From the IMG/VR virus record IMGVR_UViG_3300034683_000333: 64,000 nucleotides of DNA; one strand, given 5' to 3'. The stretch comes from a virus. Numbering within the stretch: the stretch's first letter is position 1; every line of letters begins with the position of its first letter. The notes beneath the pieces are model-generated. The model worked only from the letters and a program-made list of their open reading frames with translations. It did no database searches and was not told the DNA's origin. Shown piece after piece: positions 1 to 64,000 of the stretch. A program made the translations under genes and the position numbers.

Positions 1-472
1 TAAAGTTGCACAAAAACGAATAGATTGAATCAGAACTTTGAACACGATCATATCCAGGAATGAATCCGTGTTTCAAAATTTCACGGTAATTACCACAAAG
101 GTCTTTATCAAAATCATCAACAATAAATTTGTAAGTCAGTTTGATTGGCTGAATTTCATCACCATCGCCGAGAATAACATCACGCAATGTAAATCCAAGG
201 TGGACATGATTCTGCTTATTCCATCGCATCTACAAATCGTACAATACAGTGTCGATATAATACCAATAATCTTCTTCATTTATTTTGAGATCTTGCTTAA
301 TGGATTGAATACTTTTCTTCTTGGAATTGGGATCATACATAAAATCAAACACCGTGGAATCCAAGATGTGTTTGCTTTTTGTGGGGTTATCACCCGTTTC
401 AATCTCCCCGCCAAATTCACCAAATACGACATTATTGATGTAATACTCCTGACGATCTGCACGATTTCCCAT
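1..472 (-). CDS. hypothetical protein, runs off the window; in-frame TAG at 230-232 read through
   Basis: Strong SD (AAGGAGG) before ATG 472. After TAG the frame stays open to base 1 (..VLYDL*MRWNKQNHVHLGFTLRDVILGD..). Confidence 0.7.
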
Positions 473-512
473 AATTTAGTCCTCCTTGGAGTTGTTTATA
501 TTTTACTGGATA

Positions 513-2675
513 TTACCAACCATTCTTCTGAAAAACCTCGTTGATGTACTTGTTGGCGTACAAAATCTCCATACGCCCCGTTGACGTGACACACGAAACA
601 AGCAGTCGATTAAACAAAACTCCAAATGAATATCCAAAATATCCGTAAATCGAATTCGCATAAATTTTATAAAACAACTGATAAATATGATACTTTCTTT
701 TTTCTATCGGATCTGTCGCTTCGGCCTTTTTCTTTTTATACTCCGCACGAATTGTCAACAATCGCTCACACATCTTTGCAATAAATCCAGGCTTCTTATC
801 GTATATAATCCCTATATTAGCAATTGTGTATTTCCCAGAACGGAAAATACCACGATACACTTTGGAAGCGGATACATTTAAAAAACGATCTTTTACAAAA
901 TCATAGACAACGACACGTCGATCATCTCTTGGCTCATCGAAACCATTATAGAGATAATCGATGGTTTCTCGAATGGGAGTGATAAACCTGGCCGTCTCAA
1001 CACTGATGTTAAGACCATACATAATTGTCGGGTACATAGAGAAAAAATCAAGGTCGATGAGTTTTTCGGAAACACCAATAAAACTCTTATTGTAAGCACC
1101 ACCATAAGAACGAATTGAATGGATGTTGGGGGCGATCACTTTACGCACCCAATCCCATTCATCCTCACCTTCACTAAGTCGATTGTGACAAGATGTGGTC
1201 ACCTGGTGAGCATCCAGGAACTTTTTCCGTTGATCCTCCTTGATCTTCCCACGTCGAATCTGACCAAGCAAAGTCTGAATGCTATATACCTTCGTATCAC
1301 TTGAATCATCATCGGAATCATCGTTGTCACTGTTTGTATTATCTTCAGAAACATCATTTTCATCAAGAGATGTGATATGATTTTTCAAGAAATTGACAAT
1401 ATTCTTATAGAAATATATCTTCAAATCTTTCTTCTCCAAACCATAAAAATCTGCATTAACAGCCTTATATACTTCATTGAAATAATAGTTATAATAGTTT
1501 GTAAACTTTGAAGCAATAAACACAATACCATTAGCTTTACCAAATTTCATAAAATATGGTTCAAGTATGTTCTTTACATTAAAAACATGCAATACGGCAC
1601 CATTCTTATGAAACTCAAACATAACATCAATAAGATTAAGATTTTGATCCATCAAATAAATAAGAAAACAGTCAACGATATTATATGCAATATCAAGAAA
1701 TGTATCGCTTTCAATTTTATTTACACCAAGTACAGCATTTGCAATATAATCAAGCTTCATACTTGGCATATTTTTCGATACAATAAACTTATAAAGATTC
1801 ATGTAATCAATTGAAAACCCATGTGAAAATACATAACACTTTTCAAATCCATCAAACGTTGTATAATATTCAATTTTAATACTATTCTTTTCACACCTAT
1901 TGATAAGATATTGAAGGTCAAAGTTATTAACATTCCATCCAGTAACAATCGCAAATTGCCGCAAACACTTTAAAATATCAACCAACATCGAACTTTCTTC
2001 ATCGTAAACATTATAAACAATCCGAAGATCTTCAAAGTCACTGGAATTCACACGACCAGAAACGTGATTCTTAATTTTTTCCATAATCTCGTCATGAGAT
2101 GTGAACTCCACCCGATCACGGAGATAAAACACATTTGCCGTCTTCGTCTCGCAATCGAAGATTGTTGCCAAATCGATGGGATATTTTGCCTTCCCGGGAT
2201 CAGGAAACGAACCGTCATCGGGAAACATCTCGATATCGAACACACACACCCGTACATCATTTCGATCGGCAAGCGTCACGGGAAGTGTCTTGATGTGGTA
2301 TTCTGAACGAAACGTATTGTAGGTAAGATACCGAGTGGGATGAAATTCTGTATTGGCAACGGCAGAATATGATTTGACATCGCCAATGGTGGAAAGGTGC
2401 ATCGGATGGACTTCGATTTTTTCACATCGCTTTGCATACTGAAGATACAAAGCTTGAAATTTGTTGCTCTCTGTTTTCAGATTATCAATGCTATACCTAT
2501 ACACCGGGACCTTAATAGAAACCCGCTTTGAAACAACATGCTTCGTTTCCTTATTTACGAAATGCAAAACACATTGTTTTCCAACATAATAAGCATTTAG
2601 AAGAACATACCCCTTCTCTTCCCCACGCTTAATCAAATCCAAAATATCAGACAAGCTCATTTCTTGTTGCATCAA
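513..2675 (-). CDS. polB: family B DNA polymerase, N-terminal subunit (3'-5' exonuclease plus motifs A and B; motif C absent)
   Basis: ExoI FDIE, ExoII TGWNVNNFDLQY, motif A DLDFFSMYPTIM, motif B KIYANSIYGYFG. Ends at TAA before YGDTDS. Confidence 0.9.
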   Translation of the reverse strand: MMQQEMSLSDILDLIKRGEEKGYVLLNAYYVGKQCVLHFVNKETKHVVSKRVSIKVPVYRYSIDNLKTESNKFQALYLQYAKRCEKIEVHPMHLSTIGDVKSYSAVANTEFHPTRYLTYNTFRSEYHIKTLPVTLADRNDVRVCVFDIEMFPDDGSFPDPGKAKYPIDLATIFDCETKTANVFYLRDRVEFTSHDEIMEKIKNHVSGRVNSSDFEDLRIVYNVYDEESSMLVDILKCLRQFAIVTGWNVNNFDLQYLINRCEKNSIKIEYYTTFDGFEKCYVFSHGFSIDYMNLYKFIVSKNMPSMKLDYIANAVLGVNKIESDTFLDIAYNIVDCFLIYLMDQNLNLIDVMFEFHKNGAVLHVFNVKNILEPYFMKFGKANGIVFIASKFTNYYNYYFNEVYKAVNADFYGLEKKDLKIYFYKNIVNFLKNHITSLDENDVSEDNTNSDNDDSDDDSSDTKVYSIQTLLGQIRRGKIKEDQRKKFLDAHQVTTSCHNRLSEGEDEWDWVRKVIAPNIHSIRSYGGAYNKSFIGVSEKLIDLDFFSMYPTIMYGLNISVETARFITPIRETIDYLYNGFDEPRDDRRVVVYDFVKDRFLNVSASKVYRGIFRSGKYTIANIGIIYDKKPGFIAKMCERLLTIRAEYKKKKAEATDPIEKRKYHIYQLFYKIYANSIYGYFGYSFGVLFNRLLVSCVTSTGRMEILYANKYINEVFQKNGW

Positions 2676-2677
2676 GA

Positions 2678-3772
2678 TTATACTCCCGATATCGGAATGT
2701 TTTTGATATTCGTTGACACCACACTCTGATAATATCGCTTGACATTTGAATTTAAAATATTCCGAAACCGGATTAGCAACATCAACACCCCAAACGCCTT
2801 CTCCTTATCCCCATTATCGTACATCATATCGACGAACATGTCAAGACATTTTGCATAAGTAAAAATGTATTCCAAAATATCAAAATAGTATTCAGTACTT
2901 AAAAAATCATGTATGATATTTCTATATTTCAACCAAACACTGATTTCAATACCATTTAATACAACATAATGACTTGAGATATCTTTTATAATGAAGTCCA
3001 TAAAAGACTTATTATCTATTGATTGACGAATTTTATTTCCAATCACATACAATACAAATGATATAGTAGTTATTGTACCCAACGGAATTGTAAGCTTTTC
3101 ATTTTCCAGCTTCTTTATATATGGAATACCATAAACATCAATAAAAGACTTGAATTTATGAATATTATATTTACCAGACATTAACATTGAACGATAAGCT
3201 GTCGCCGTCTTGATAAATTCATCGAATTCATTAGAATTAGATAAAATCAAATTAGACAATGTGTCAAGTCTGTTATAGAAATTTACAAAACAACCCTAAG
3301 TATCGTAAAACCACTTGCTGGGTTTTGCATATGAAAAACCATTTTGACATTTACAAAGTGCGCTTAACTCCCTCGTCCTGACGATATTCAACACCATGGT
3401 CAACCTTGGGTTTCCCTTGAACAACAGAATTGTGTTGGATGAATCTTTAGACTCTGGAATCAAACCACTAAACAAATCACGATACCACGTCAAATTGTTA
3501 ACAAACCGATCCTCAATAATATCGAACACTTTTATTCTACGATCAAAATTAAACGACTTATATACACTATTTTTTTCATCATCAACAGTACAATAATTGC
3601 GTAAATAATAATAAATTGAATTTTTTAGACTACTTTCGTTTCCAGATGTGTAATGTTTTATGTTATTAAAAATAAAATCAAGGGCAGTTTCGAAACTGCC
3701 CATGTTACGCAAATAGTCAACTCCGACCGACTGAACAAAGGTCTCAATAATCGGTTTGTAGTTACACTTCAA
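2678..3772 (-). CDS. hypothetical protein (fusion of track ORFs 3296..3772 and 2678..3259 through TAG 3296-3298)
   Basis: Both ORFs share a frame; the 12-codon linker is open (KWFYDT*GCFVNFYNRLDTLSNL). Confidence 0.75.
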
Positions 3773-9735: not shown

Positions 9736-10344
9736 TTACCTCCGGTTAGTTTTTTTAGATTCAGTAATATTTCTAAAATATGCTATATAAAAAGAATCCA
9801 ATATATCGGAAAGCGGAGACTTTAATTTATCACCACCACCATTAACATCATTATATATAGACAAAACATCGTCGTACCATTCATTTGAAACAATTATCTT
9901 AGATGAATCAACCATATCACAAAAGACTCTAAACAGTTCCTCCTTCTTGGCATTACCCTTATAAATTGCTTTTTTCACCATAGTTGGTGATACAACACAA
10001 AAAGTGTTCATCTGCCTCGTCAAAACCAGTTTTAAAATACCAACGAATTCACCTATCGAAAAAACTTTTCCAACAGCCCTAAAAGCATAATCTTCAATCA
10101 AAAGGTCATCATAATCATACCGTTCAATAAAATTTGAAAATGTTTTTACAACTTCATAATAGTATAAAATATCATTACCAATTGCTTTACGATCAATAAA
10201 TATCGGGGTTATTGTACCACGCTCACATCGATCTGCCATCCTTTGTGTCGGAACCACGACCCAGGATCTCGTTATGCCGTCTTCTGTCTATACGGTCATG
10301 GCCGTAGATGTGATTGAAGGATCAATTCCGATGTAGCACTTCAT
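9736..10344 (-). CDS. ruvC: RuvC-like Holliday junction resolvase; TAG at 10288-10290 (codon 19) read through
   Basis: SD GGAGGT plus ATG 10344 gives MKCYIGIDPSITSTAMTV*TEDG, in frame with IEDYAF, IGEFVGILK, VSPTMVKK, GNAKKEE, DILDSFYIA. Confidence 0.88.
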
Positions 10345-10419: not shown

Positions 10420-11118
10420 TCAAACCATAAGCTTCAAAAATTGCATTCTCATGTCGTCATCCCATTTGCGATCCTTTAGGCGGATCGGAAGCTTAACACC
10501 CATCGTCCGCAATATTTTCCAAACGTCGGTTTTTTTGTAAAACAAATATTTGGAAAGTTCAAAACATCCATCGGGTGTGAACAAGAACACCCTTTCCGTT
10601 CTTTTTTGCCAATCCTCGGAATCCACCATTTTGACAACCGCAAGGTTCGATTCCTTAACAACCTACGTGATATAGAATCCCTCGGGAATCGAACAATTGG
10701 TAAAATTTCTCAACCTTTTCTTAAAATTCCTATCTCTCCATACAACATACTTTTCAGGAAATGTATTTCTATAGGCCAAATCCCGATCATTTACATTACA
10801 TTCGGTTTTGGTCCAATCATTTCTTCTTATCTTTGCTTTATCTCTTTCAGCCACAATTCGAACATATTTTTTCTGTTTTTCAGTATACCAAGAAACAGTA
10901 AGATATGTGGTTTTAGCCAAATATTTATAGCTGTTTCCAACATGGCCTCCATCCGAATAGATGTAGCCATACTTATTTTCTTCAATCATGGGAATGTATT
11001 TAAACAGTACCCAACGTTCAATGAGACGACACCGATTACCACGTTCTACAGTGTCAAGAATCTACTCGATCTCATTCTTTACATTTTCTACATCAATGAA
11101 AATAAAACGCTTTTCCAT
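10420..11118 (-). CDS. hypothetical protein with two in-frame TAGs (11062-11064, 10663-10665)
   Basis: SD AGGGGG plus ATG 11118; one frame joins track ORFs 10663..10989 and 10420..10629 (KNEIE*ILDT; GFYIT*VVKE); ends TGA at a terminator. Confidence 0.8.
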
Positions 11119-14554: not shown

Positions 14555-17500
14555 ATGTTTTCACAAAACTCATCCATGAATCTTGATATCCTATCAAATA
14601 AAGACTTTGTAAAAGCATATAATACAATACTCCAGTCTCTCAATCAAGATACGCCAATTTTTTACCAAAATACTGACAAGTTCCAAATTACCATCAACCC
14701 CCAAGACTTTGACTTACTACAAGTCAACGAAAAACTATCACACGCCATCATACTACCATACGAAGTTAGTATTGTCAATAAATCTTTTATGAAAACAAAA
14801 GTATATCGATTGGTATCACGAAAACTTCCAAATACGATAAACTAGCACACGAACGCACAATTCCCATTCACCGTTGAAATTGACCAAACCAGGTCCTTTC
14901 TATTGTACGTGACTATTGATACACTTGATGATATTGATTGGTTAATCGATAACGATTTGGCATTTGTCGCTTATACAGATAACACCACCCTTTACGAAAT
15001 CGATTTTGCGATAAGAGTGCCTGACATTCGTGGAATTTCTTCATTTAGCCAGTTTGAAAACTACATCGAAGCAAAAGATTGGTACGAATCCGGTGTAACG
15101 GATTTCGACGAAATCATTAACCTTAGTATAGGAATCCATAAACAATCACAAGCAAGCCGCATCCTTAATCAAGCATTGATTGATTTTACAGATCGCTCAT
15201 CACAAGAATTCAATTCATTAATTCAGTCCATTTAGAATCCAGAAGACATCTCTGAACTCGAAAAATAGAGAGCAACCTTCAAACCCCATCTTCCTGGAGA
15301 TTTCATTTGGGCGCTCCTCACACTTGAAGACAACTATTCACTCAAATCAAAAATGAAGTTTAATATTCAAAGAATTTCATATATTTCTGGTATTTTAGAA
15401 AACAAAAAAAATTGCGGATATGATGAAGCATCACAAATGTTTGAAAATTAGAAGAATTCAGTTGAAGTCTATACCGGAACGGACATAACAGAACAACGAC
15501 AAAAACTCGATTTACTTACTATGCAGATCAGAATACCTTGGTTCGGCTCTGAATGGTGTATTTTTGACGTTATTACGACCATTCTAAATATCAATGGATA
15601 CCAAACTACTGTAACAGACAACCAAAGTCTAAAGGAATATGTGGGACAACACATTCGATCAAGCGGAATCAGCAACTTAACACCTTATATAGAAGATGTA
15701 AACATAAACTATGATATTAGCTCACAAATTAAGGAAAATACTTATACATTTACAACTTTGGTTCCTACTGGTTATGTACCTAAACCTGACAATACAACAC
15801 AATATGGTTACAAAATCATTCATGCAGATCATTCTATTTTGTTTAGTGATATTCTCGATACAACCGACTTTGAGATAAGCTTTATATATCATCGCCCAGT
15901 AAACATAACAAGTAGGAATTTTATTTTTCATGATTTCAAAGATTCTTTTATTCAGAAAATGTTAAGTTATGATTGGACATCTTATTTTGGTGGAAGCATC
16001 GACCCAAATATTCCCATTAACCTACTATCGACAGACTACACGATTGAACTCTAGAAAACCAATGAAAATGGTGACTTCACCTACGACAACACACAATGGG
16101 TGGTCAATAAAGTTACAACACTTCATCTTTCTGATGAAATTGTTGAATCTTTTAGAATAACGAACTTTGAAATTCTTGACGATGGAAGTGGTGACATCCT
16201 TCTAACACAAACAAATAATGTAACCGACATCGTTGCAATCCACAAAATTGACGTATTCAATGAAGGAAACACATATTTGCAACTTACTGAAGCGAAATGG
16301 TTTTTGCCTACAATATACCCATATCAAGAACAATTCAAAACAGCATTTCCATCATTCTTCGTTGGCCTCGACACCATAACAAACAACAAAGAATTTTATC
16401 AATCCATGATTAAACGAATCGACATTGTTTCAACTGGAACACTAACTCCTGGTGAAACGGGTTCAATTTTCGTTGTTGTCAGACTGAATAGAAACATATT
16501 AAGTCATTACCTATCACAATTTATTGAAATACCATATGCAATCAAGCTAACATTCAATGAAGATCTTCATTATTACATCACGTGGAGCACAAATGGCATT
16601 ATTTCAAAATACCTCGACTGGAAAGAAGGAAAACAAAAGTATCATCCCAAGAACATTATGTGGCAGTAGCCATTTTCCAATGAAATTCATAACGGTGATT
16701 TGCCACTGGCAATTCCAGATGATGATGTATATAAATACTTTCCACCTAATTTTAATTACTAGTTTTCCACCTACCACGAAGAATCAAGCGACCCAGTGAC
16801 ATATCCCAACGACTTTGTAAAAACACTGGCACGGATGAGCGAAGATCCTTCTACGAATCTACCAGCGCCCATCGTCAAACCTGGACAATACGGCATCGTC
16901 GCATACCCGATGATTCTTCCTATTCCAGAAGGTGAGACAAACATCGGGAGCATTTCTGATCTCATCACCCGGTGTCATACCGCACCACTCAACAAAACCA
17001 CCTATCGAATTCACTGGCTCTATTTCAACGAATTTTTTGATGACATCCTCTCAACATACAAAACGGCAAAAAAACTCGGCTTTAGTTGGATTCCAACGTC
17101 AGAAAATACACACTACGTAACAAATGGTCTTGACTATACTGAAAATAGAATAATTCCAAATACAGGAAGTATTCGACCAATCAATTTAGAATAGTTTACC
17201 AAAATCAACGCAAAAGTTACATTTATGTTTAATGAAACACTTAAAAATGTATTTGAATACAGCTTCCCACGCACCATTTCAACATATGAAACGCTAAGCG
17301 ATGTAGATAAATTTTTACAAGAACTTAAAGGTGAAAATGAAGAAATAATACCACCAAAAGAAGATAAACCAAAGAAGTTTTTGGATAAATTCCTTTACAA
17401 AGTAAAATTAGGTGAAATTGTAGGAAACAAACCAGGAACTATGATTGTTCAAACCGATTATATGAATCTTTTAACAATTCAGCGACACGACAATTTCACG

Positions 17501-19168
17501 ATCAAAACACACTCAATCGGCCCCGATTCACCAGACACGTATCAAATTTCAATAGTTGATCCGACACTTGGTAACGGGGAAATCATTATTCGCTTCTTAG
17601 GATCTGATTACACTTTTACTTTCGAATGGGAAAAAATTGATGAACGTTCCATCCTCGAAAACATTGGTAACGTTGTAATCGATCCAGATTACATCAACCT
17701 TAAATACATTCCCATTGACGAAACATATTCTGTTGCCATCTCCATTACAAATCCAAATCCGTTTCCATTGGATATCACGAGCTTACCCATGGCAAATGAT
17801 TCGATGTTGGTTGTTGAAATGGTTGAATTTCCAGAAAATGAATATCTTAATCTTCTTTATCATCATTGGAAAGTCCTAAATAAACCTTATAAACTTCAAC
17901 CCAATGAAACTGTAAAACTTGTTTTACGAATTATTCCACGTCGCATTGGGGTGAACTTTCATACATTATACTTAAAAATCGGTAATTCAATCCGAACTGT
18001 TGACATCGAATTTAACTCTTTTGTAAATAACAAACCATATTTTGTTCTAGATGAAGAAAGTAGAATTGTCGATTTTGGAGATGTACCCATCGGGAAAATT
18101 GAAGAAAAATCAATTATTATTAAAAATATCGGTGATGTTATTGGAAAAATAAATTCAGTTTACACTTTCGGAAATGATGCTCAACATTTCAAGCTTCTCG
18201 ATCCAAGAACTGGAGAAATTGCAGAACGTTTGTCATTTAATAAGATTGTAAAACCGAAAACATCCCTTCACGTACCGGTACGATTCTACAGCCAATCATA
18301 CGGTCTGAACACGTCGTATGCTCACATCGAAACCAATGAACCGGTTGTTGACCAGTGGCAAATTTTCGATGATTCGACCCAGCTATTCAGAAATGCACCA
18401 AAGTATCTGTCAACACTGTTACGTGCTCAAGTCGTTTTGGAAGACGACCCAGTTGATCTTGATACCTATATTTTCCTTGGTTATGTACATCCAACCAGAA
18501 GTCGTTTTAGAACATACGAATTAACACTCAATAACAAATCATCCGATAAGATCATTAGCATTTAGAAAATTGATAACTACATGAAAAACTATATTAAAAT
18601 AAAATACAGTCAAGAGCCTTTCTCACAGAAAACAAGCGTTTATATAACACTCAATCCAAGATCATATTCAGAAAACATATATTTTGATCAACTATTTGTC
18701 TGGTATTCCGTTTATGACAAGAAGACGCATAAACGTCGAATCGTATTGAAAAAAATACCCATTTCGTGGCAAGTTACCTCAGAAAACTATTATGAATTTG
18801 ACATCAATGCAAGTGAGCTTATTCTTGTCACAAAACCGTTTATCAAAACAATGAAAGTTTTGCATGTCACAAACTTTAGCAACGTCGATGCAACAATGGA
18901 GATAAGCTTTTTGAACGATTTTAGTGGACTTTACTCTATTGTACCCCATCTTATTGGACCTGTTCTTATACCAGAAGGAGTTCGATACACTTTCAGAATT
19001 CTTTTCGGTGGGGATCAACGATTTCTTGGAAAATATGACACAGGAATAAACATTCTATTCAATATTGGTGAATCAACAATATAGAAAACAATTGCATTGA
19101 AGGGACTCATTGGAGAAGAAAACATCATTAAAGCGTACAAGCGAAAAAATATCATCATAACAACCTAA
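14555..19168 (+). CDS. large 1537-aa putative virion/surface protein with ASH/choice-of-anchor-D Ig-like domains; 10 in-frame TAGs
   Basis: Seven track ORFs (14555, 14903, 15521, 16100, 16796, 17225, 18581) are all in one frame, separated only by TAG, with no TAA/TGA until 19166. VDFGDVPIGKIEEKSIIIKNIG..FKLL..VPVRF..HIETNEP is ASH-like. Confidence 0.88.
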
Positions 19169-20391: not shown

Positions 20392-20420
20392 TTCACCCTC
20401 CGTTGCTTGTTTGTAATAAA

Positions 20421-22734: not shown

Positions 22735-24243
22735 ATGAAAATAAAAAAGCGAAAGAACAACCCAAAACTAATAAAAACACCACAATCGGTCATCCGCATA
22801 AATGATGGTAAAACTGAAGTTTATCGTCAACATTTTTACAAGTTAGCAAATAAACAAAAAAACATCAATCTTAATCGAATAGGATTAAACAAAGACGAAC
22901 GTTTGATAGTTGACACACTACTTGAACATTCCGATAAGGTATATCTTGTTGGTGGTGCTGTAAGAGATTTATTTCTCGGCAAAAAACCAAAGGATTTTGA
23001 TTTAGCAACTGATTTAAAACCAGAAGAAATCATAAAAATTTTTGGTGAAGACAAAGCAAAATTAACGGGAAATGTATTTCCAACAGTCCGAGTAAAAATA
23101 AATGATTCTGAGATTGAAGTAAGTACATTCAGAAAGGAAATTGGAGAACCAACCGGAGATAGAAAGCAATTTACCGTAAAATATGCCACAACAATCCAAG
23201 AAGACCTGGATAGAAGAGATCTTTCCATCAACGCCATTGCCATCAATTGCAAAACGGGGGAAATCGTCGATCCACACAATGGAATTTCAGATATTGAAAA
23301 CAAAGTTATTCGATTTGTAGGCGATCCACGTGATCGACTCCGGGAAGATCCTTTGCGGTTCTACCGGGCCATTCGATTTCGTCTTAAATTGGATGGAAAA
23401 TATGCACCCGAAACGATTTCGGCTCTTAAAGACCCATCAGTGGTCCAAATGGTAAAGGAAAATGTATCTAAAGAACGAATCCGAGAAGAGATTTTAAAGT
23501 CCATGAGCGCCACACAACGGGCGTCTGGATTTTTCAGGGATTTACATGCGTTCGGTATGTTGGAATACCTGTTCCCACCACTAGCCAAGTCCGTAAAACA
23601 CGACGGTGGTCCACACCACGGGGAAGATGTGTTCACCCATGCTATGTTGGTGGGAGACAATTTCACCCCACGAATCCCCAACGATCCCAATGAATCTCTG
23701 GCAAAACTGGCCGCTTACCTACACGACATTGGGAAACCAAGCACATACGACCCCGAAAACCGCTCCTTCTATAATCACGAAAAAATTGGAGTTTCTGTTG
23801 CAACTGAAATTCTAAAAAGCTTGAAATTCTCTACTAAAGAGATAGAATATGTATCGAAATTCATTCGCTACCACATGAACAAACCGACCACCCCAAAGGG
23901 CGCTCGAAAACTGATTCAACAATTCGGTGAAGAAGATTTGCCCAATCTCATCGAGCTTTTTCACGCAGACACAATCTCAAACTTGAACAAAACGCCGGAA
24001 GAGATTAAATTTAGTAAGGAAAAGATTGAAAATATACGGATTTTAATTGATGAGGTAAATTCAGAAAAAGATAAATTTTTGAAACCAATAATTACGGGCC
24101 ACACACTCATAAACGAACTCAAACTTAAACCCGGAAAAATTTTCAAGGAAATTCTCGATTTTGCAAACGAATTGACCTTGGAAGATCCAAATAGAACCAA
24201 AGAGGAAATACTTAACCAAATTAAGAGGAAATTTGATTTATGA
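22735..24243 (+). CDS. cca: CCA-adding tRNA nucleotidyltransferase with HD domain
   Basis: YLVGGAVRD..KDFDLAT, RRDLSINA, EDPLRFYRAIRF, ERIREE, LHDIGKP. Confidence 0.92.
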   Translation: MKIKKRKNNPKLIKTPQSVIRINDGKTEVYRQHFYKLANKQKNINLNRIGLNKDERLIVDTLLEHSDKVYLVGGAVRDLFLGKKPKDFDLATDLKPEEIIKIFGEDKAKLTGNVFPTVRVKINDSEIEVSTFRKEIGEPTGDRKQFTVKYATTIQEDLDRRDLSINAIAINCKTGEIVDPHNGISDIENKVIRFVGDPRDRLREDPLRFYRAIRFRLKLDGKYAPETISALKDPSVVQMVKENVSKERIREEILKSMSATQRASGFFRDLHAFGMLEYLFPPLAKSVKHDGGPHHGEDVFTHAMLVGDNFTPRIPNDPNESLAKLAAYLHDIGKPSTYDPENRSFYNHEKIGVSVATEILKSLKFSTKEIEYVSKFIRYHMNKPTTPKGARKLIQQFGEEDLPNLIELFHADTISNLNKTPEEIKFSKEKIENIRILIDEVNSEKDKFLKPIITGHTLINELKLKPGKIFKEILDFANELTLEDPNRTKEEILNQIKRKFDL

Positions 24244-34880: not shown

Positions 34881-35171
34881 TTAGTTACCCCCTTCATTTT
34901 TTCGATCAACAAAACTTGCCTAACAACACCTACAAATCCATCTCATTGAATCAAGATTGCGAAAATCATCCTCACCACAAAACACACACCCAGTTCCATC
35001 CACCCTCGTATTCCACCAATCAATACACCCCTTCTCACTTGGTGAGGGTGGCCCTTGCAAATGACAATTCAGACAACATACTGAAATCTGAAACTACGTG
35101 GATACTACACAAGTCAAATCACTAGAATCACACAAAGGACAATTTAGTAATGTAATGCTACTATCAGTCAT
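34881..35171 (-). CDS. Lar-like (restriction alleviation) double Zn-ribbon protein; TAGs at 35094-35096 and 34920-34922
   Basis: Missing from the ORF track. MTDSSITLLNCPLC..T*FQISVCCLNCHLQGP..IDWWNTR..CVFC..CRCC*ASF fills the sbcC-nrdJ gap exactly. Confidence 0.72.
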
Positions 35172-41352: not shown

Positions 41353-42216
41353 TCACACAATGAACAACCAGAAGAATCGTTTCTTAAGTTCACTATCGAA
41401 TAAACGCTTGTATTTTTTACTCGTGTTTTGAAGGTTCTTTACCACATTATTGTATCCATTGGCGACCGTGGGAATGGCCTATTGCAAGGCTCCGATCACG
41501 GTACTCCCTTGGGTAAACGAAATGGAAATCTCACCACCAAACGACACCGAACTTACACCGGAATTCAAAAGATTCGTCTGATCCGTGTTCCGTAGTGAAT
41601 TGAGAACCGTCCCAAGAAACTCGTCCAATACCCCCATAGTGCTCATGTCAAGCCCGTTAATCATCCAATCGGTGATTTTCCACATGGAATACGCCTTTAG
41701 TGCCTTGAAATCACTTGGCATGATCAGACTGCTACCAGGATCATCATAATTAAATTGTAAATTATTCATGACGAGAAAAACCAGAATGTATCTATCATCT
41801 GGATTTAATTCATAAAAGTATGTATTGCGTTCCCCATCAAACAAAACAACGGGGTTGATTGTATAGCTATTAGACTTGTGGGAAAACCACATAATTTGTT
41901 GAACCAACTCGATGTTTGAAATGTAGACAACACCTTCTTGAGGAATTTCAGATACATACTTCATGATTTGTTGAATATTGCGATCCTGCTTAATCAGAAA
42001 AACATGTGTCAAAAAAGTCGTGCTATCATATCCTGTCAAGTCCAGTAACGGGTAAAATCGTTGTTTGTAGTTGATTGCGACCGTTCTAGCATGTGGATAA
42101 TCCCTGTTGAAAGACGGAAGCACATACAAACGCATCAGATTTTCAAATTCTGATCTCGAAATTGTAACACGAGTCTCAAATAAAATCTGGTCATAAAGAT
42201 CGTTAAGATTAAACAT
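41353..42216 (-). CDS. putative neck/head-completion protein; TAG at 41479-41481 read through
   Basis: Next to the portal. Readthrough adds 42 codons (GALQ*AIPTVANGYNNVVKNLQ..) up to TGA 41353. Confidence 0.55.
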
Positions 42217-50025: not shown

Positions 50026-50751
50026 ATGGGCATTTCGATATCCAATTTACAGAAACCTAGTAACAATTTGTGGATTTACGATTATTCGTATGACAATACA
50101 TATAAAGATCCGATCGATAATCAGTTTTTTGATATTGTAAAATATGAGTCAAACTATTATCTTCTTCAGAAGGAAAACAAGATTGTTTTTTAGGATTGTG
50201 ATTTTAGATCTTCTTCTATTTATACTGATCTATTGGAACCAAGCTTTCCTTGCCTAAAGGAGATGCAGATCAACATTGTTGATGCATTCAAGTTTAGTCA
50301 ACGTTATTATCTTCATGAAAGGGGTGACTATACATTTTTTAGTTATAATATTTATCAAGACGCTATTCAGATAAACATTTCGTTTAGTGGATTACTTAAT
50401 GGGTGTGAAATTGAAACTCCAGAGTATTCACTTATCTATGATTTCTTAATGTCTTATTTATCAAATTTCCTTGACGATACTGTAATTGGATATTACGATA
50501 AAATAAATAATGGTGAATTATTTGAATTGATGTTTCCAAATCTTAATGTACCCATTATTGGAGATCCTTTTGGGAAATGGTCATTAACATATAAAGTGAA
50601 TGTCATTCCAAAAACGTTTCGTCATAAAATAGAAACAGACTATGTTCAAGATTTAACATTGACAATGGCGGTAGATGGTGCTATGCTTATTGGAAATGGA
50701 GGAGCTTCGCAGAAGTTTCCCCATGTCATCGATTTGGGTGTTATTGTTTAA
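50026..50751 (+). CDS. hypothetical (possible tail-completion) protein; TAG at 50191-50193 read through
   Basis: SD GGAG plus ATG 50026 in frame with track ORF 50233 (KIVF*DCDFR). Confidence 0.7.
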
Positions 50752-52385: not shown

Positions 52386-52449
52386 AATATATACATGATG
52401 AATGGTAGTTCTATTCACAACCACAAACTTCAGTTTAAAGGAGGATGAA

Positions 52450-53337
52450 ATGGGTGCAAGAGTACGAAAGGCTTGTGTAAATTGGGTCATTCCACCGAAG
52501 CAGGCGGCAACTGCATCACCTGAAAATCGTGTTATCTCAATTTCAAGACACAGGTTGGAAAATCAATTGACTGGTGTTTCAAAATCCCTTAAGGATGGCG
52601 GTGTTCAATTCAGCCATGATGATTTCAATCTCAATCTACCAGATATAAACGTTGCTGAAGAGTTGAGTCGCAACGGCACATTTTTCTTATCCAGGTTCGT
52701 GAATGGGAGTGCTCTATGTAACGTTTACATGGCAAAAGATTTCCAAACGGGTCAACCTATGCCATTTGTAACCATGACGAGCAAGGATAAGCGGTATTTT
52801 CTTTTGATTTCCAACAAAAACAAAAAAGATTATGAAATCTACAACGACCGTGGTTATTATATTGGATATGTTCCGTACAATGTCGAAGGGTTTAAGTTTG
52901 TAACGCTCGGTCAATTGGCGGAAGACAGTTAGCTTCCCATTTATGTGAAGTCTGGTAAGATCGTGTTTAATCGGGAAAATGAGAGTTTGTGGTACGACGC
53001 ACTGAACTATTATCTGTTTAGTGATAAGTCCAACGAAATCATTGATTACCGACGACTTTACAAGATTGAGACGGAAGATTATAGTTTCATCGTCAAATAC
53101 TCCAACATTTTCTTTGACAGACAAGGCGAGTTTTTGATTCGACGCAGTTATTTAACCGAGGACGGTAAACTCAATGTTACCAGGCTTCGCAATCTCAAGG
53201 AATATGAGGATAGATCTGATGGGGTTGGTGGTTTTCTATATGTCAACAACACGTTTCAAATAAATGTGTTGTATAGGGAAAAGAAAACTGATGTGCGTAA
53301 AGCAGTTGGTTATAGCTACGTTAAGGTTTTGGTATAA
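52450..53337 (+). CDS. hypothetical protein; TAG at 52930-52932 read through
   Basis: Track ORFs 52402..52932 and 52945..53337 are in frame (AEDS*LPIYVKSG); SD AAGGAGG before ATG 52450. Confidence 0.75.
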
Positions 53338-54007
53338 GATAAAGTATTTTGTCGTGCGACGATTTGATGCTTGTCGTGAAATCGTCGCACGACGATTTCT
53401 TATTCCACGTTTTGGTACATATTATAAAAAAAGATTTATTCGAAAAGTAGCGTGGAGGTTGTCTAAAGAATTAACTAAAAACAAATGTGGGTATTGTATT
53501 ATTGTTCATTATTATAATTCGAAACTTCTAAACAATTATAAAAATATTTTTGAGCATTTGGGTGTTCCATCGGAAGATCTTGAGTGTGGTTTTGTTCGTT
53601 CGGTGAAACCTTTTTATCCAGGAGAACCAGCTTATATTGTTTACATTAACGAGAACAACGTTGATTATCTTATTACCTTCATTCATGAAATTGGTCATAT
53701 TATTTTAAATAACGAGCGTTGTTTACGTAAGTATCTTCATGGAGTTGAATATGAAGATACTTATAATTATGTGAATAAGTTTGATAGGCATTATACATAT
53801 AAACGAAAGTGCAATGAATATTATGCTGATGTTGCTGGATTTAATTTTGTTAAAAGTTATGTTTCAAAATTTTATGAAATGTTTATTTTTCATGATATGG
53901 TAAAGATGCAACAAATAATCCAATACAGGGAACAAGATATTTTATTTTTGGAGGAAATTCATGAGAACTATGAGCGACCTAGAGACTGCAATCTCAATGG
54001 GTTATAG
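53264..54007 (+). CDS. HEXXH zincin-like metallopeptidase
   Basis: FIHEIGHII followed by EYYAD. Confidence 0.6.
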   Translation: MCCIGKRKLMCVKQLVIATLRFWYKIKYFVVRRFDACREIVARRFLIPRFGTYYKKRFIRKVAWRLSKELTKNKCGYCIIVHYYNSKLLNNYKNIFEHLGVPSEDLECGFVRSVKPFYPGEPAYIVYINENNVDYLITFIHEIGHIILNNERCLRKYLHGVEYEDTYNYVNKFDRHYTYKRKCNEYYADVAGFNFVKSYVSKFYEMFIFHDMVKMQQIIQYREQDILFLEEIHENYERPRDCNLNGL

Positions 54008-54179
54008 ATGTCGCATTTATTACATGTGCCGAGAGTGCAACAATTTTTGCTTCACACAGGATGTTGATAGCCACGAGAGCGTGATTTCGAGTATGCTAAA
54101 AGGCTGTCCACTTTGTTCTTCGACGGAAGGTGTTGAAATTCTCGTTTAGGAAACGTTAGATAACACAGAGGATCATTGA
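53961..54179 (+). CDS. small Zn-ribbon protein (TAG 54147-54149 probably read through)
   Basis: CREC..CPLC; readthrough ends at a TGA overlapping the next start. Confidence 0.55.
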
Positions 54180-56244: not shown

Positions 56245-56661
56245 TTAATCAAGATATTTATATTCTAGAAATACGATTGAGCCGAGGTATTTGACAGCCA
56301 AGTAATAACCTAGTGCAATGACATTACGCATTCTTTTTATCTATTTATACTTGCTTTTCTGGTTAATGATCAACAAAAGATTTGTGTGGAAAACTTTGTC
56401 AGAAAGTTTTTTGTCATCGAAATCTTCGGCAAAAAACCACATGAAATCGTGGACACGACAAGCGTCGGTGACACAAAGACCAAGAATCTTGTCGGGTATA
56501 AATTTATCACCCAATTTGTTGGGACCACATCCACCGGCGATTTGGTTAATTTCGTCTTCAGAAAGTCTATTCTACAGTTCCGGTAGCAAAAGTTTTACGT
56601 CACCGACGTATTTACTATTGTAATTTACAAGATCAATTTTCCAATTTTGTAATTTTCCCAT
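56245..56661 (-). CDS. phospholipase A2-like (CG..HD) protein; TAGs at 56572-56574 and 56341-56343
   Basis: Missing from the ORF track. SD AGAGGA plus ATG 56661; GGCGP..IPDKILGL..DACRVHD..DKVF..GYYLAVKYLG. Confidence 0.75.
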
Positions 56662-58567: not shown

Positions 58568-58948
58568 TTATATTTCGATAACATCAATGTAAGGATAACT
58601 GGATATGCTGTAGTAAACACGTTTAATCCCAACGTGGGAGATATAATTCATACACCACAAACATGGTTTGGCCTTTAGAAACCTTCCATTTTTGTTAACT
58701 CTTACCACAACCATTTCACATCCATTAAGATCGTGTCGTGCATTTAGAATGGCATCCGCTTCGGCATGAATCGAGGTGTCCCATTTTTTCTACTTTGGGT
58801 GGAGTTTTCTTCTCCAGGAAGTTGTCTTGTTGAACCCATTACTGATGATCCGTTTACCCTTAAAAATGACGGCACCCAACTTATGACGATGATTAGATTT
58901 TTGAGATTCACGAACGGCCATTTCAATTTTGGTTTGGTGCTTACTCAA
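58568..58948 (-). CDS. second Zn-dependent nucleotide deaminase (CDA fold); TAG at 58790-58792 read through; start uncertain
   Basis: HKLGAVIFKG..NGFN..HPK*KKWDTSIHAEADAI..VVVRVNKNG..AKPCLWC; HAE and PCxxC lie downstream of the TAG. Confidence 0.85.
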
Positions 58949-58967
58949 AAACGCACGAATTGTGTCA

Positions 58968-59213
58968 TTACAACTAAGAGAAGAGTCGGTCCCAGAAGCT
59001 TTCCCATTCATCGATGAAATCCTCACTATTTTTTTCTGCCCTTTCGATAGCAACTTCGATTGCCTTTTTTGTGAAAAGAGCTTTTCTGATCGTTCCATTT
59101 TCTTCTTCAATGATTACTGGGACATATTCTTTTGCCGATCCGAACTTACGAAGCTTGTTCGGTATGATTTGCTTTAATGTTATAAAACTTTTAACATCAA
59201 TCTCCTTTTTCAT
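58968..59213 (-). CDS. hypothetical protein (TAG 58974-58976, TAA two codons later)
   Basis: SD AGGAG; ..WDRLFS*L-TAA. Confidence 0.6.
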
Positions 59214-59225: not shown

Positions 59226-59840
59226 TTACCATCTTTTCCAGGCTTTTACCCAAGACCTTCTAAGAGGATATATTTTCTAGAATATATAACGGTTCAGTTT
59301 AGTAATATCCTATTTCTCGTCTTCATCCTCTTTATCTTTGTTCTAGGCTCTTGCACTATCTTTTATTATCTTTTGAAACTTTTTTTGTTTAATAAATTCA
59401 AAAATATCTGCTTCAATAGTTTTTTCATTGATTTTTTCAATGTTTTTTTGAATGTTTGGTGTAAATAAATTATAGAACATCAAAACAATAGGTATTTTGT
59501 AGTATAATGTATTGTTAGATATATCACCAAAATAAGTCGTGCTGTCCTCAAATGTCAATAGTTTTGTTACAATGTCTGCTGAACTCATATCCATAAAAAA
59601 CGATACATATTCATTTGTAAACACATTTTCATTTTCCAGTTTTTCATTTGGGTGTTGCTCTTTCTAATCAATATATTTCATGAGTATATTGTCTAATATT
59701 GTATACAGCTTTTCATATTCATTAAAAAATTGTTCTAATGATGAAGATTTGTTTATAATATTCTTCATACGTGTTGTAAGTTCTTTACTTCCATTTGTTG
59801 CGGATAGCAACCGGATAATCGCCTTTGTTTCTTTTTGCAT
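59226..59840 (-). CDS. hypothetical protein with four in-frame TAGs (59664, 59343, 59310, 59277)
   Basis: SD GAGG plus ATG 59840; a single frame fills the whole gap to TAA 59226. Confidence 0.78.
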
Positions 59841-59843
59841 TGT

Positions 59844-60227
59844 TCAATCCCTCATATAGGTAGCTGGATTTTTAATAATTGAAATTATTCGATTTTTATC
59901 TGATATGTTAAATATTTTAGAAATGTGCTCAACTACGATTCTCGATGTCAACATGTTATATACACTTTCTCCAATCGAGTATGGGTTGCTACTGTAGATG
60001 GATTGCGAGTAGATAGCGATTTTGTCCGGTTCTAGGTAAAGTTTTAGAACTTCTTCTTCCACAAACAACAACAATTCCAGGATATCAGTTTTATCATTCA
60101 TTTTCAATAGGTGTTCCTTGATTTCACTCGCAAAACGCATTCCATTTATATTAAATAGTGTGTTTTCTATTGTAGTATCAATTTTATCCATTGTCGTTTT
60201 CTCCAAGTCCAGAAACAACGTGTTCAA
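59844..60227 (-). CDS. hypothetical protein
   Basis: Co-oriented operon member. Confidence 0.65.
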   Translation of the reverse strand: MNTLFLDLEKTTMDKIDTTIENTLFNINGMRFASEIKEHLLKMNDKTDILELLLFVEEEVLKLYLEPDKIAIYSQSIYSSNPYSIGESVYNMLTSRIVVEHISKIFNISDKNRIISIIKNPATYMRD

Positions 60228-61980
60228 ATTCCTTGTAGATTTTATATTTTATTTTATTTGTAACTGATTTGATGTTTCGCATAACGGAATCGTCTTGTCG
60301 ATGGATCTTGTGGATTGGGGATTCGTATGTAAACGTCTTGGCCTTGGATACCAAAGTGGGAATCTCCCTTTTCAACTCTTTCATTGTGACTTTTTCAATT
60401 GTATCTTCTTCAATTAGATTTTTTGCAATGGATTTGAGCCTTCCAATGTCTTTAATTTTTCCATTTCGCACACCCTCCTTTATTACATCCAATCGAAATT
60501 GAATATCTGGTACTATTTTACTATTGGAGATCATTTGTGTATGAGTGTTTGTTATATTTAACACATTTTGTTCAACTTTCTGAGGATCTACAAGCATCTG
60601 TTTGGAATCCATATATTGCAGTAGTTTTTTTATAAAAGTCAAATCACGTTCATCTTGACCATAAACCTTCCAGTGATCGAAGTTTGTAATCTTCTCATCA
60701 TCGAGAAGAGTTAGAAATATTCTAGCTGTTTTCTTATATAGACCATTTTTGGGTCGTTCATTTCCGATGTAAACAATAAAATCTCCAATCTCGTCGAGGT
60801 AGTATGTTTGTGGTATGTTGATGTTGTGTTCATTGACGTTTACGTTTCCATCCTTGGTAAGTGCAATACACGTATCCAGATAACCATCATGGCTGGCTGA
60901 CAAAAAATCAAGTGGATTCACACTTACATACACAAGACGTTTATGTTTTGTCTTTCTCGGGTCTACAATGTCCCACAAAATCAACGAAAATGTGTGAATT
61001 GTTTTGTGGATAGCGTCGTTTTCATCAAGGTCGGTATAAAAGATTGGAATACATCCATGTTTTCCAATGTAATCCAGAGTTGGAAGGACTTTGCCCTTGG
61101 GGAGCTTGGAAAGAATCGAAACAACCGGGTGTTCCTCGCCAAATTGGGTTTTTATGTTGCCTAGCCACTTACTCGGATCACTACTGATGTTCCATCCATT
61201 GGAGATGAAAAATTCCTGGATTTCATTGATATGTGTGCGTTTTATTGGTTGGATTAATCCAGAGTCGGCAAAGCGTTTGTTAAATAGTGTTCTCAACAGA
61301 AGAATCGGTCCAATTTTGGACGTAAATTGTTTTTTCGTCGTTTTTTGTTCACGTATAAACAAAACAAGATTTTTGAAGAAATCTGGTTCAAAAGATGTAA
61401 AATCTGCAAATAATTCTTTCAATTTGTCGTTTCGTTTGGATATGCTTTGTCTAAACTGCTTAAACATCTTTTCATTGATGATTTGAGCAATTTCATCACC
61501 GGATTCGTTATAAGATGTTTCCTACCAAAAACGAAATACAAAATTGTTGATTCGTTCAATTTTTGAATCGATGGTATTTTTAAATATGCGTTCCAACTCC
61601 ACTGACCTATTATATAGATTTGAAACATAGTTATCCGAAACAATTTTTTTATAGAATGTTGTCGAATCTTTTATGTATTCTCCCCATCCGGTTTCATTTA
61701 TGGATTCTATACATTGTGTTAGAAGTCCCGTTCCATTTAATGCCGGTTCATCACAGAAATGACGTTTTCCCATTTTGTAAAGTTTCAAAATTCCTTGTTC
61801 TACCTTTTCGACGTTGTTCTCTTCTAATGCTTCGGATACTTCCTTTACAGCATTTTGCATATCACCCCAATGAGGGATACTTTTTTCCGGGTCAATTGGA
61901 ACAATTTTCTGATAACCGGAAACAAATTTACCTTCACGTAGGTGAGGTCTAAAATATATATTCTTCAAGATCTTTGCCAT
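60184..61980 (-). CDS. hypothetical 598-aa protein; TAG at 61522-61524 read through
   Basis: Track ORFs 61522..61980 and 60184..61467 are in frame (VFRFW*ETSYNESG). Confidence 0.78.
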
Positions 61981-62076: not shown

Positions 62077-63594
62077 ATGAAGGTTGTTAAGTTCAAAAAG
62101 TCGTTTTAGGTTTCGGATGCAAAGGGAAAGAATCTCAAAATTGCAAATAATGGGTACTATGTGTTTTCAGATTTTGTGTTGAAACAGTTTATTGATAGTG
62201 TAAAAGTTAATCCAACCGAACTGTTAGAATATGTTAACGAGTTGGATCGGGAATATCCATTGATGAGGTTTGATAAACCCGATTCACAAATTAAACCCAA
62301 TCGAGCGCTGATGATTGTTCGAACGGGTGGAATTGGTGATCTTATTGCTTTGAGTCACATTCCGACGTTGTGTAAAACAATTTACAATAATGTTTATGGT
62401 CAAAACTTGAAAACATTTTTTGTTACCGATGCCCGCTACAGTGCGGTTTTTACCTACTACGATGAGTATGTAAAGCCCATTTATTATTTCAGGACACCTG
62501 TGAACAAGGCTTTCAAGGAGATGGGAATCTTTGAGAAAAGCAGTGTTCGGTCGATGTTTTTTGAGGGGGTTATTGAGGAGAGTGAAGAAAATTGGTTCGA
62601 TTTGCAGTGGGAGCGCATGGGAATCGATAAATTTCAACATCTTGATAAACTCCCCGACGAAATAAAAATTAAGCGACCGAATTTGGTGGATAGAAGGGAA
62701 GCCATATCCCGATCGCTAGATCAGTTGCGATTTGAAAAATCCGATGTTCCGAGGCAACTATTGGGACTTAAAGAGGATGGATATCGTTTGGTTCTTATCA
62801 ATCACCGTGCAAGTGCATGGATCAGAACATTCAATCCATCGGATGTCGTTGAAACACTACGTGATTATTTGAAGGAGAATGGTGTTGAAAAGGTCAAGTT
62901 CATCGTGTTTCCTAGAAACTTTACAAAGAGCGATGAAGAGTATTTTAAAAATCCACTGGATGACGTTGTGTGTTTAAAGACTGAAAATCTTCATGAGTTT
63001 TTCTTTACAATTGCTATTTCTGATTATGTTATTTCATCCGATACGGCTGCGCATCACTTCAGAGAAGGCATTCGAGCACCAGGTATGGGAATCTATTCTT
63101 CATTTCCAATGGAAATGCGTTGTAAATATTACAAGTATACAGTTGCGGAGAATATTTTATTTGATGGTTGTGAATTTGTTTGTGATCGGTCAAATTATGT
63201 CGGGTGTGTAAGCCATTTCAAAAATCCTTACGAGGTATGTCCATGGATTGCAAAACGTTATTCTGAATATCTCAAGAGCGAACATCATCACAAGCGTGGA
63301 AATCGCATTCCAAATAAAACATGGTTGAGTGAATTGGAAGATTTTGTGAAAAATGTTGGCTATGACACACTTCAGGAGGAACACATTTTCCAATATGCCC
63401 CATGTTGCGATTCTCGTTGGAATGAACGGTTCAGGGATCGTTTGATAGAGCTTTATGAAAAACACGATCTCGCCGGAATTTTGAAAGACGTGGGAGGAGC
63501 AGAATTCACCGTCGTGGGTTCACAAACAAAACCACTAAGTAAAACCAAAAAGAAGACTAGTGGAAAACGGGGTCGTCCACGTAAAAAGAAATAA
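62077..63594 (+). CDS. glycosyltransferase family 9 (ADP-heptose heptosyltransferase-like); TAG at 62107-62109 (codon 11)
   Basis: IVRTGGIGDLI, LINHRAS..R, VISSDTAAHH..APGMGIYS; SD AAGGGGG plus ATG 62077. Confidence 0.8.
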
Positions 63595-63637
63595 ACAACC
63601 ATCGATGTATGGGGGGGTCTGGAAGCCCCCCAATCCT

Positions 63638-63826
63638 TTATTTTTTCATGATAATTCTGTTTTTATCGGTGGGCTTATCGTTTTCCACGATTTTAATTGT
63701 TTTATCGGCTATTGTTTTACACAATTTACAAATCCATACTGATTTACCATCAATGGTTATGGTTTCAAAGTATTTGAAGTTGTTGCACTTTTTACAGTGA
63801 AAGATTAAAGTCGGAAATTTCATCAT
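63638..63826 (-). CDS. small Zn-ribbon protein
   Basis: HCKKC..ICKLC; ATGA overlap with iscB. Confidence 0.55.
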   Translation of the reverse strand: MMKFPTLIFHCKKCNNFKYFETITIDGKSVWICKLCKTIADKTIKIVENDKPTDKNRIIMKK

Positions 63827-64000
63827 AAGCCAGTGCAGGAGACTCCATCTTCTTTAAGATGGAGAGGAATGCGCTGTTCCCTCCTTTCTAATATTAGTGT
63901 TTTTGCTTTTTCTAAAAGTTTTAGGTTTGACCACTTAACTGATGAGTGAATTTTTTCTCCACTTAATGAACGCATATCAAAGTATCCAGAGATTCTTAAC
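63823..64000 (-). mobile_element. iscB: 3' end of an IscB-like (IS200/IS605 OMEGA) endonuclease gene, truncated by the window edge
   Basis: ..SGYFDMRSLSGEKIHSSVKWSNLKLLEKAKTLILERR.. matches the IscB C-terminus as recalled; hairpin CTCCATCT/AGATGGAG at about 63843-63864 resembles an IS200/605 right end. Confidence 0.7.

Follow-up and report, generated by a model that had tools for sequence, protein, structure and literature searches.

The IMG/VR virus record IMGVR_UViG_3300034683_000333 includes a stretch of 64,000 nucleotides, hereafter the window, in which many apparent genes are broken by TAG triplets. We asked whether these triplets are read as sense and, if so, as which amino acid and by what machinery. 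The original prediction, made on the letters of the window, had claimed that amber (TAG) recoding is pervasive and is masked by open reading frame (ORF) calling under the standard code, and that both the residue inserted and the likely host appear to differ from those of the code-15 phages, in which TAG is glutamine. As set out below, comparisons of the sequence with that of its relatives indicate that TAG is very probably a tryptophan sense codon in this phage, which would decode it with machinery of its own: a tRNA with anticodon CUA and a divergent tryptophanyl-tRNA synthetase (TrpRS). The window is the reverse complement of bases 1-64000 of a 126,535-bp virus record, from which it differs at one base only (window 27073, A versus G). 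CheckV puts the completeness of that record at 64%, and identical proteins are also found on contigs of up to 195 kb.

In-frame TAG codons on both strands

All 34 positions listed in the original prediction as in-frame TAGs are TAG on one strand or the other. For about 27 of them the frame is clearly coding both before and after the TAG; about seven are weak, the weak sites being 3296, 24685, 34920, 35094, 54147, 58974 and the last two of the set at 59226-59840. Two of them (54147 and 58974) had been marked as weaker from the start. About eight additional TAGs, absent from that list, lie near gene ends: those at 11343, 26496, 27394, 37685 and 54005 are C-terminal, and those at 3782, 5803 and 6876 are N-terminal and depend on which start is chosen.

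The gene at 14555..19168 (plus strand), which has an Ig-like domain and is unassigned in function, contains ten TAGs (14843, 15233, 15266, 15449, 16052, 16667, 16760, 17192, 18563 and 19082). Under the standard code it falls into at least eight ORFs; with TAG as sense it is a single frame of 1537 codons without TAA or TGA, and the chance of such an open frame, computed from the TAA plus TGA frequency, is about e^-67. Two full-length homologs (P0124 and P0125), together with locus L012 of a relative, cover all ten of its TAG sites.

Coding density, measured as coverage by greedy, non-overlapping ORFs, was compared between codes. With TAG as sense, coverage of the window climbs from 0.901 to 0.925, that of the remainder of the genome from 0.799 to 0.924 and that of the whole genome from 0.851 to 0.925, whereas whole-genome coverage is 0.867 with TGA as sense and 0.881 with TAA as sense. 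A gain of this size is thus obtained only when TAG is sense, and the statement that TAA and TGA are never crossed is borne out. Overall, 174 in-frame TAGs are spread over 55 of 126 ORFs.

A codon-usage score, trained on 22 long TAG-free genes and computed in 40-codon windows, separates in-frame (+5.3) from off-frame (-13.0) windows. It is positive on both sides of the TAGs at 230, 10663, 11062, 26709, 29516, 41479, 50191, 52930, 56341, 56572, 58790, 59664, 59343 and 61522. At two loci it also favors a TAG-bearing frame on the minus strand over TAG-free ORFs on the plus strand. The first is a 232-codon gene (phrog_4637; 10420..11118, TAGs 11062 and 10663), which scores +0.151 per codon while the rival plus frames are negative; the second is a 138-codon gene (56245..56661, TAGs 56572 and 56341), which scores +0.121 per codon versus -0.176 for the TAG-free plus ORF at 56318-56623.

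In two enzymes, catalytic motifs lie on opposite sides of a TAG. A RuvC-like resolvase (9736..10344, minus strand) has TAG 10288 as codon 19, and its catalytic 'IGIDPS' N-terminus lies upstream of that codon and is missing from the standard-code ORF. A cytidine/dCMP deaminase (58568..59110, minus strand), with TAG 58790 as codon 107, needs read-through because the N-terminal strand is encoded on one side of this TAG and the HAE and PCxxC zinc motifs on the other.

Assembly or sequencing errors, pseudogenes or separately translated fragments would explain the fragmented look of the genes under the standard code, and nothing else; we give this explanation next to no probability. Assembly errors are ruled out by assemblies made independently from other samples, which agree at 99.985-100% identity over stretches of 13.5-21 kb: the Logan assembly SRR11566985 shows 100% identity across 21.2 kb, and a contig of this phage from JGI shows 99.985% identity across 13.5 kb, with two differences from the window. 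TAG positions are, moreover, conserved among relatives at 38-51% protein identity. In summary, coding frames that are otherwise continuous are broken on either strand by TAG and by no other stop codon, and coding density and the alignments of relatives support the claim of pervasive amber recoding hidden by standard-code ORF calling.

Residues aligned with TAG

Relatives were found through deep protein searches, which returned two unfragmented homologs of the 1537-aa protein and three diverged TrpRS relatives. The loci compared were L007 (a stretch of an 87.5-kb relative), L009, L010, L011 and, from JGI, L012; these five diverged relatives all have in-frame TAG themselves. In a Codetta-style tally, DNA-level alignments were used to collect the residues opposite TAG in either partner, and likelihoods were computed with substitution frequencies from the same alignments. 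Among the 77 residues opposite TAG were 27 W, 15 F, 7 Y, 5 E, 3 K and 2 Q, and W had by far the highest log-likelihood (-193.7, versus -250.7 for Y, -251.6 for F and -364.9 for Q). W also ranked first when only window genes were counted (n = 31; W -86.7, H -102.6, Q -133.3) and when L010, L011 or L007 was used alone. TAG columns (W.35, F.18, Y.10) have much the same profile as TGG columns (W.47, F.11, Y.09), and the relatives frequently show TAG at TGG positions of this phage.

Individual proteins give a similar picture. In the 14555-19168 product, codons 97 and 299 correspond to W in the relatives, codon 880 to W or TAG, codon 500 to TAG or Y and codon 1337 to F. When a 12-TAG protein encoded outside the window served as query in a separate whole-library HMMER search, the nearest fragments showed W at three of its sites and Y at another three, and the relatives' called fragments end exactly at the TAGs of this phage. 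The alignment columns thus indicate that TAG is a tryptophan codon here and not a glutamine codon, as the predicted departure from code 15 had anticipated.

Under code 15, TAG would be glutamine, inserted by a suppressor tRNA that the host glutaminyl-tRNA synthetase (GlnRS) charges. The source pipeline did call L010 with TAG as Q, and U35 of a CUA anticodon favors GlnRS in E. coli. Q accounts for only two of the 77 aligned residues, however, with the log-likelihood given above, and the phage encodes a dedicated variant TrpRS and a tRNA(CUA) that is most like tRNA-Trp genes and has C1:G72 and U73; we regard glutamine as highly improbable. The Q residues in P0124 were initially a candidate for glutamine evidence and were dropped, as the P0124 locus translates only with TAG as Q and those residues are themselves TAG codons.

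A different aromatic residue deserves more weight, since F and Y are the next most frequent partners of TAG, and a phage tyrosyl-tRNA synthetase (TyrRS):tRNA(CUA) pair inserts Tyr in vitro (PMC12636597). Tyrosine, phenylalanine or ambiguous aromatic decoding nevertheless appears quite unlikely. The log-likelihood is worse than that of W by 57 for Y and by 58 for F; F and Y columns are almost never W, while TGG columns share the F and Y spill-over of TAG columns. Bacterial tRNA-Tyr has a long variable arm, and the 77-nt phage tRNA has a short variable loop. Among the genes scanned, a TrpRS was found and neither a TyrRS nor a phenylalanyl-tRNA synthetase.

Several other approaches yielded little on the residue. 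PHROGs and Pfam searches with the TAG-rich proteins gave almost no family matches and hence no profile-based inference; gene by gene, TAG density showed no informative correlation with amino-acid content; comparison of paralogs and of internal repeats in this genome supplied one TAG-aligned residue only; the TAG contexts of a Kelch-like protein, viewed by eye, showed no decisive pattern; and the PDB alignment of the RuvC-like protein stops short of its TAG site. Scans of IMG/VR with the 1537-aa protein, the DNA polymerase, the TrpRS and alignment A2 found no relatives. A scan of JGI found one short contig only, and a scan of genome contigs found only a distant match at 26% (L013). Loci L015 and L016, which lie further along the L010 and L011 contigs, added three uninformative positions.

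A tRNA(CUA), a divergent TrpRS and their possible roles

A tRNA with anticodon CUA, which the original prediction had suggested seeking in the rest of the genome, is indeed present. It is 77 nt long and occupies genome positions 69063-69139, some 5 kb outside the window on the side of its start (ARAGORN; Rfam 72.8 bits). It folds into a canonical cloverleaf in which all stems are standard, with C1:G72, U73 and a short variable loop, and its closest matches in the phage database are annotated as tRNA-Trp (E 4e-10). ARAGORN labels it 'tRNA-Pyl', a label that follows from the anticodon and is the sole point in favor of pyrrolysine at TAG. The cloverleaf fits the general tRNA model and is not that of an atypical tRNA-Pyl, the TAG columns are aromatic and not Lys-like (K in 3 of 77), and the only aminoacyl-tRNA synthetase found is the TrpRS; pyrrolysine therefore seems exceedingly improbable.

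About 90 nt upstream of the tRNA(CUA) is a TnpB-like gene with OrfB_IS605 and Cas12f-like TNB domains (L001:4735-5976, plus strand; genome 67735-68976). A paralog lies at genome 96811-97881, and the relative L009 has a TnpB-like gene at 3465-4655. ARAGORN calls a 'tmRNA' at L009:3177-3532 (minus strand), over the 3' end of that TnpB-like gene and the stretch directly downstream; this call is more likely to mark a transposon guide-RNA region than a tmRNA.

The phage TrpRS (P0002; 25276..26502, plus strand) contains six TGG codons and no TAG. Its named homologs are all TrpRSs, and its best family matches are TrpRS (E 1e-30), yet it scores below the NCBIfam curated cut-offs. The HLGH, GDDQ and KMSSS motifs are intact, about 80 extra residues are inserted in the Rossmann/CP1 part, and an iron-sulfur (Fe-S) motif, C-x21-C-x6-C-x2-C, is found at residue 313 with all four Cys kept. 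In T. maritima TrpRS the Fe-S cluster sits in the anticodon-binding domain, where the first cytosine of the anticodon has been modelled (PMC2954223, PMC4027196). The T. maritima enzyme (PDB 2G36) is also the best PDB match (E 1e-22), sharing the four cluster Cys and the class-I motifs; it differs in having x22 rather than x21 between the first two Cys and in lacking the insertion and the substitutions described next. As Fe-S-cluster TrpRSs have been reported from anaerobes (PMC2954223), this enzyme type hints at an anaerobic host lineage.

The phage enzyme was compared with its 94 nearest canonical TrpRSs, 77 of which carry the Fe-S Cys motif. At 19 positions that are at least 85% conserved in this set, at least three of the four nearest sequences are changed. 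These changes occur essentially in P0002, P0003 and P0004, all three encoded on TAG-recoded contigs; the enzymes sharing the substitutions with that of the window are those of L009 and L007. The nearest cellular TrpRS, P0005, from a bacterial chromosome fragment, is canonical at all but two of the 19, including every position named here. Two of the substitutions, D to Y and H to W, fall at the positions of T. maritima D221 and H242, on either side of the Fe-S cluster. P0002, P0003 and P0004 all have W in place of H242, so that the R-FeS-H motif of R224 and H242 is not conserved; the R224 loop is two residues shorter in the phage enzyme, with Arg residues remaining. Further substitutions lie in the catalytic half (E to Q, R to H or N, and K to V, I or M), and the helix after GDDQ is changed as well. 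Clade-specific changes at the anticodon site of TrpRS thus co-occur with TAG recoding in three lineages.

This co-occurrence lends indirect support to the proposal that the phage TrpRS would charge tRNA(CUA) with Trp. The identity elements of tRNA-Trp in E. coli are G73 and the CCA anticodon, and versions with a CUA anticodon are charged by GlnRS (PMC2965240). An ordinary bacterial TrpRS should therefore not charge the phage tRNA(CUA), and a rebuilt synthetase combined with an unusual acceptor end would be a coherent solution. C1:G72 and U73 of the tRNA may thus form, with the D-to-Y and H-to-W changes, the shortened R224 loop and the altered post-GDDQ helix, a co-adapted private pair. A further gene related to tRNA, encoding a CCA-adding tRNA nucleotidyltransferase, lies at 22735..24243 (plus strand); its 502 codons include neither TAG nor TGG, and the protein has no tryptophan. 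This gene adjoins the big TAG-rich gene in L010, L011 and L012 also, and its product is likely an accessory for tRNA maturation or repair.

The share of TAG among codons is 0.21% in the window versus 0.69% in the remainder of the genome, and TAG/(TAG+TGG) is 0.12 versus 0.30 (p=3.9e-9, Fisher's exact test). TAG is absent from the genes for the TrpRS, the CCA-adding enzyme, the N-terminal part of the family-B DNA polymerase (PolB), ribonucleotide reductase and the helicases. The lower TAG use of replication genes fits a partitioning between early and late genes: the decoding genes and most replication genes, which avoid TAG, would be translatable while host release factor 1 (RF1) still reads TAG as stop, and the TAG-rich genes, most of them outside the window, would become translatable once the pair is expressed. 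Our fuller proposal is that a phage lineage of probably anaerobic environmental bacteria evolved a private pair, made up of an Fe-S TrpRS reshaped at its anticodon pocket and a tRNA-Trp(CUA) whose acceptor end the host TrpRS and GlnRS should both refuse, and thereby installed TAG as Trp in a standard-code cell. We consider this scenario probable, with distinctly less assurance than the tryptophan assignment.

Four tandem paralogs at 28500-32272 (minus strand; 290, 234, 259 and 294 aa; 40-47% identical) are built of repeats of about 26 residues ('FDKWWDPEKFNW...LA.YC') and contain about 10% Trp. TGG serves for every one of their 107 Trp codons, TAG for none (p=6e-10 given the window TAG share), and the paralogs have no Pfam family match. 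Early expression is a possibility for this strict use of TGG.

Several observations weigh against tryptophan decoding by a phage-encoded pair. F and Y together make up 22 of the 77 residues opposite TAG, nearly equal to W, so that the other aromatics are excluded only statistically, and the 77 observations are not independent, as L010, L011 and L012 are mutually related. The tRNA(CUA) and TrpRS genes are about 30 kb apart and share no operon, and no tRNA(CUA) was found in those flanks of relatives that were scanned. With six Trp codons, the lack of TAG in the TrpRS gene is not significant alone. The original prediction had also suggested a search for a release factor 2 (RF2) homologue; in the 126.5-kb record, 64% complete, neither a release-factor domain nor an RF2 or a function directed against RF1 was found. 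Finally, TAGs within 20 codons of the final stop are more numerous in the window than expected (6-9 versus 2.9), and a few early genes may terminate at TAG.

The last point suggests a dual meaning, in which host RF1 terminates some early genes at TAG and Trp is inserted elsewhere or later. The near-terminal window TAGs, 1-20 codons before TAA or TGA, are at 11343, 26496, 27394, 37685, 54005 and 58974, and may be former or still-used terminators with back-up stops. In the remainder of the genome there is no such excess (9 versus 8.6 expected), and genome-wide, TAGs within five codons of the stop number 7 versus 3.3 expected (p=0.054). TAG 27394 is one base ahead of the ATG of the next gene. A 174-codon gene at 26460..26984 (minus strand) has TAGs at 26709 and 26496, both of which are also TAG in L009; the alignment around 26709 is 51% identical, and the tail beyond 26496 is not conserved in L009. 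A conserved Trp ahead of a variable tail would account for this pattern equally well, the near-terminal excess is small and comes partly from doubtful ORFs, and no context signal was identified. Dual meaning is compatible with TAG as a tryptophan codon, and we view it as a tentative possibility, less likely than not.

Gene content of the window and known recoding systems

In the genome of this large, uncultured tailed phage, the window is the half devoted to replication and nucleotide metabolism. Its replication and recombination genes encode the split PolB, a PD-(D/E)XK exonuclease, a UvsX-like recombinase and the RuvC-like resolvase, and others encode ribonucleotide reductase, ThyX, an SbcC-like protein, two deaminases, SNF2 and DnaB-like helicases, an SLT lysozyme domain and a Ros/MucR regulator. 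Translation is represented by the CCA-adding enzyme, the TrpRS and the only tRNA within the window, tRNA-Ile with anticodon UAU (49018-49094, plus strand; Rfam 75.1 bits), which presumably supplements AUA decoding in a genome of 37% GC. The majority of the remaining window proteins have no Pfam or PHROG family match. Between the big TAG-rich gene and the CCA-adding enzyme is a minus-strand block (19204-22550) with genes for a DUF2201 metallopeptidase/VWA-like protein, an ORF of unknown function and an AAA ATPase, all three without TAG.

PolB spans 2-2675 (minus strand). Its N-terminal part, 720 aa long, is closed at 513 by a stop other than TAG, and its C-terminal part, of 308 codons, starts 40 nt later in a different frame and runs past the window start. 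The C-terminal piece within the window (2..472) contains TAG 230, with scores of +11.3 upstream and +9.1 downstream, and an 'LGDGDE' that is possibly a degenerate YGDTDS motif.

Other TAG-bearing genes with positive scores on both sides include, on the minus strand, a 148-codon gene among the Trp-rich paralogs (29369..29815, TAG 29516; +8.4/+11.7), a 287-codon gene (41353..42216, TAG 41479; +4.0/+5.9) and a 598-codon gene that joins two standard-code ORFs (60184..61980, TAG 61522; +3.6/+5.8). On the plus strand they include a 241-codon gene upstream of the DnaB-like helicase (50026..50751, TAG 50191; +12.4/+6.2) and a 311-codon gene, again a junction of two standard-code ORFs (52402..53337, TAG 52930; +10.5/+10.7). 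In a 505-codon gene (62077..63594, plus strand), the ten N-terminal residues ahead of TAG 62107 (codon 11) align with the relatives L010 and L011. A 204-codon orphan at 59226..59840 (minus strand) has four TAGs (59664, 59343, 59310 and 59277), and a search found no homolog of it.

Weak cases complete the set. Two standard-code ORFs at 2678..3772 (minus strand) are joined in frame by TAG 3296 with scores of +1.6/+2.4; a 163-codon ORF directly upstream of the TrpRS (24667..25158, plus strand) gains a weak N-terminal extension through TAG 24685 (codon 7); and a 99-codon candidate of doubtful coding status (34881..35180, minus strand, TAGs 35094 and 34920) scores about 0. A short ORF at 53961..54179 (plus strand) is weakly extended by nine codons past TAG 54147, and in another at 58968..59213 (minus strand) one codon follows TAG 58974 before TAA, so that stop and sense are indistinguishable.

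Code-15 phages include crAss-like, Lak, Garnet, Topaz and Agate phages (Borges et al., 10.1101/2021.08.26.457843), and recoding in this group has been validated by proteomics (PMC9523058). As in the present genome, in-frame TAG occurs in many of their genes, a phage tRNA(CUA) is encoded, standard-code calls are fragmented, and the recoded codon is rarer in replication and code-change genes than elsewhere. The depletion of TAG in the window's replication genes matches the model in which recoding delays translation of later genes (Borges et al., 10.1101/2021.08.26.457843). In code-15 phages, however, TAG aligns with Gln, and host GlnRS is thought to charge the tRNA, whereas here TAG aligns with Trp and the phage has its own variant TrpRS. 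Code-15 phages come mostly from gut samples; for this phage the host is hinted at only by the type of its TrpRS, and a search for its sample and assembly accessions found them in no paper.

Phages that make a stop codon Trp by means of their own TrpRS and a suppressor tRNA are also known. Jade phages carry a module of TrpRS, RF1 and tRNA(UCA) for TGA to Trp (Borges et al., 10.1101/2021.08.26.457843), and the AP1 and HF2 phage TrpRS:tRNA-Trp(UCA) pairs insert Trp at UGA (PMC12636597). In these systems, as here, the machinery itself is written in the standard code. They differ in codon and anticodon (TGA and UCA, versus TAG and CUA here) and in the discriminator base of the tRNA, which is G73 or A73 there and U73 here; Jade, in addition, has its release factor, and its TrpRS and tRNA lie in one operon. 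A 2025 preprint that screened 162 phage tRNA(CUA)s reports Gln, Tyr and Ala for them, and the TrpRS pairs that it describes are all for UGA (PMC12636597).

Phrase searches of the literature for TAG or UAG as Trp found only the plastids of Balanophora and no phage case. UAG is reported as Trp in those plastids (Su et al., 2019, as cited in 10.64898/2026.01.09.698701). There too the codon is read by a tRNA-Trp with a CUA anticodon, and TAA and TGA stay stops. The plastid code is NCBI table 32. The system is that of an organelle with a tiny AT-rich genome, in which plastid RF1 has been lost and an imported nuclear tRNA is charged by the ordinary cytosolic TrpRS, unlike a virus with its own synthetase in a standard-code cell. 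The present phage would thus follow a known recoding strategy, but with another assignment and with a remodelled synthetase dedicated to it, and the assignment is not yet reported for phages in the literature searched.

Reported phage assignments are TAG to Gln and TGA to Trp or Gly; among phages whose code differs from that of the host, only TAG to Gln and TGA to Trp were described, and these were argued to reflect the tolerance of host GlnRS and TrpRS (Borges et al., 10.1101/2021.08.26.457843). A phage with TAG as Trp would break this host-tolerance rule, the way round it being a synthetase of its own with a rebuilt anticodon pocket. Prodigal-gv, Pharokka-gv or code-15 calling, as applied to L010, would fragment such genomes or put Gln at each TAG, and the wrong residue would corrupt protein families and structure predictions. 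If the assignment is true, synthetic biology would gain a natural amber suppressor pair for Trp alongside the phage pairs that read UGA, and UAG as Trp would have a second, independent origin after the Balanophora plastids, reached by a different route.

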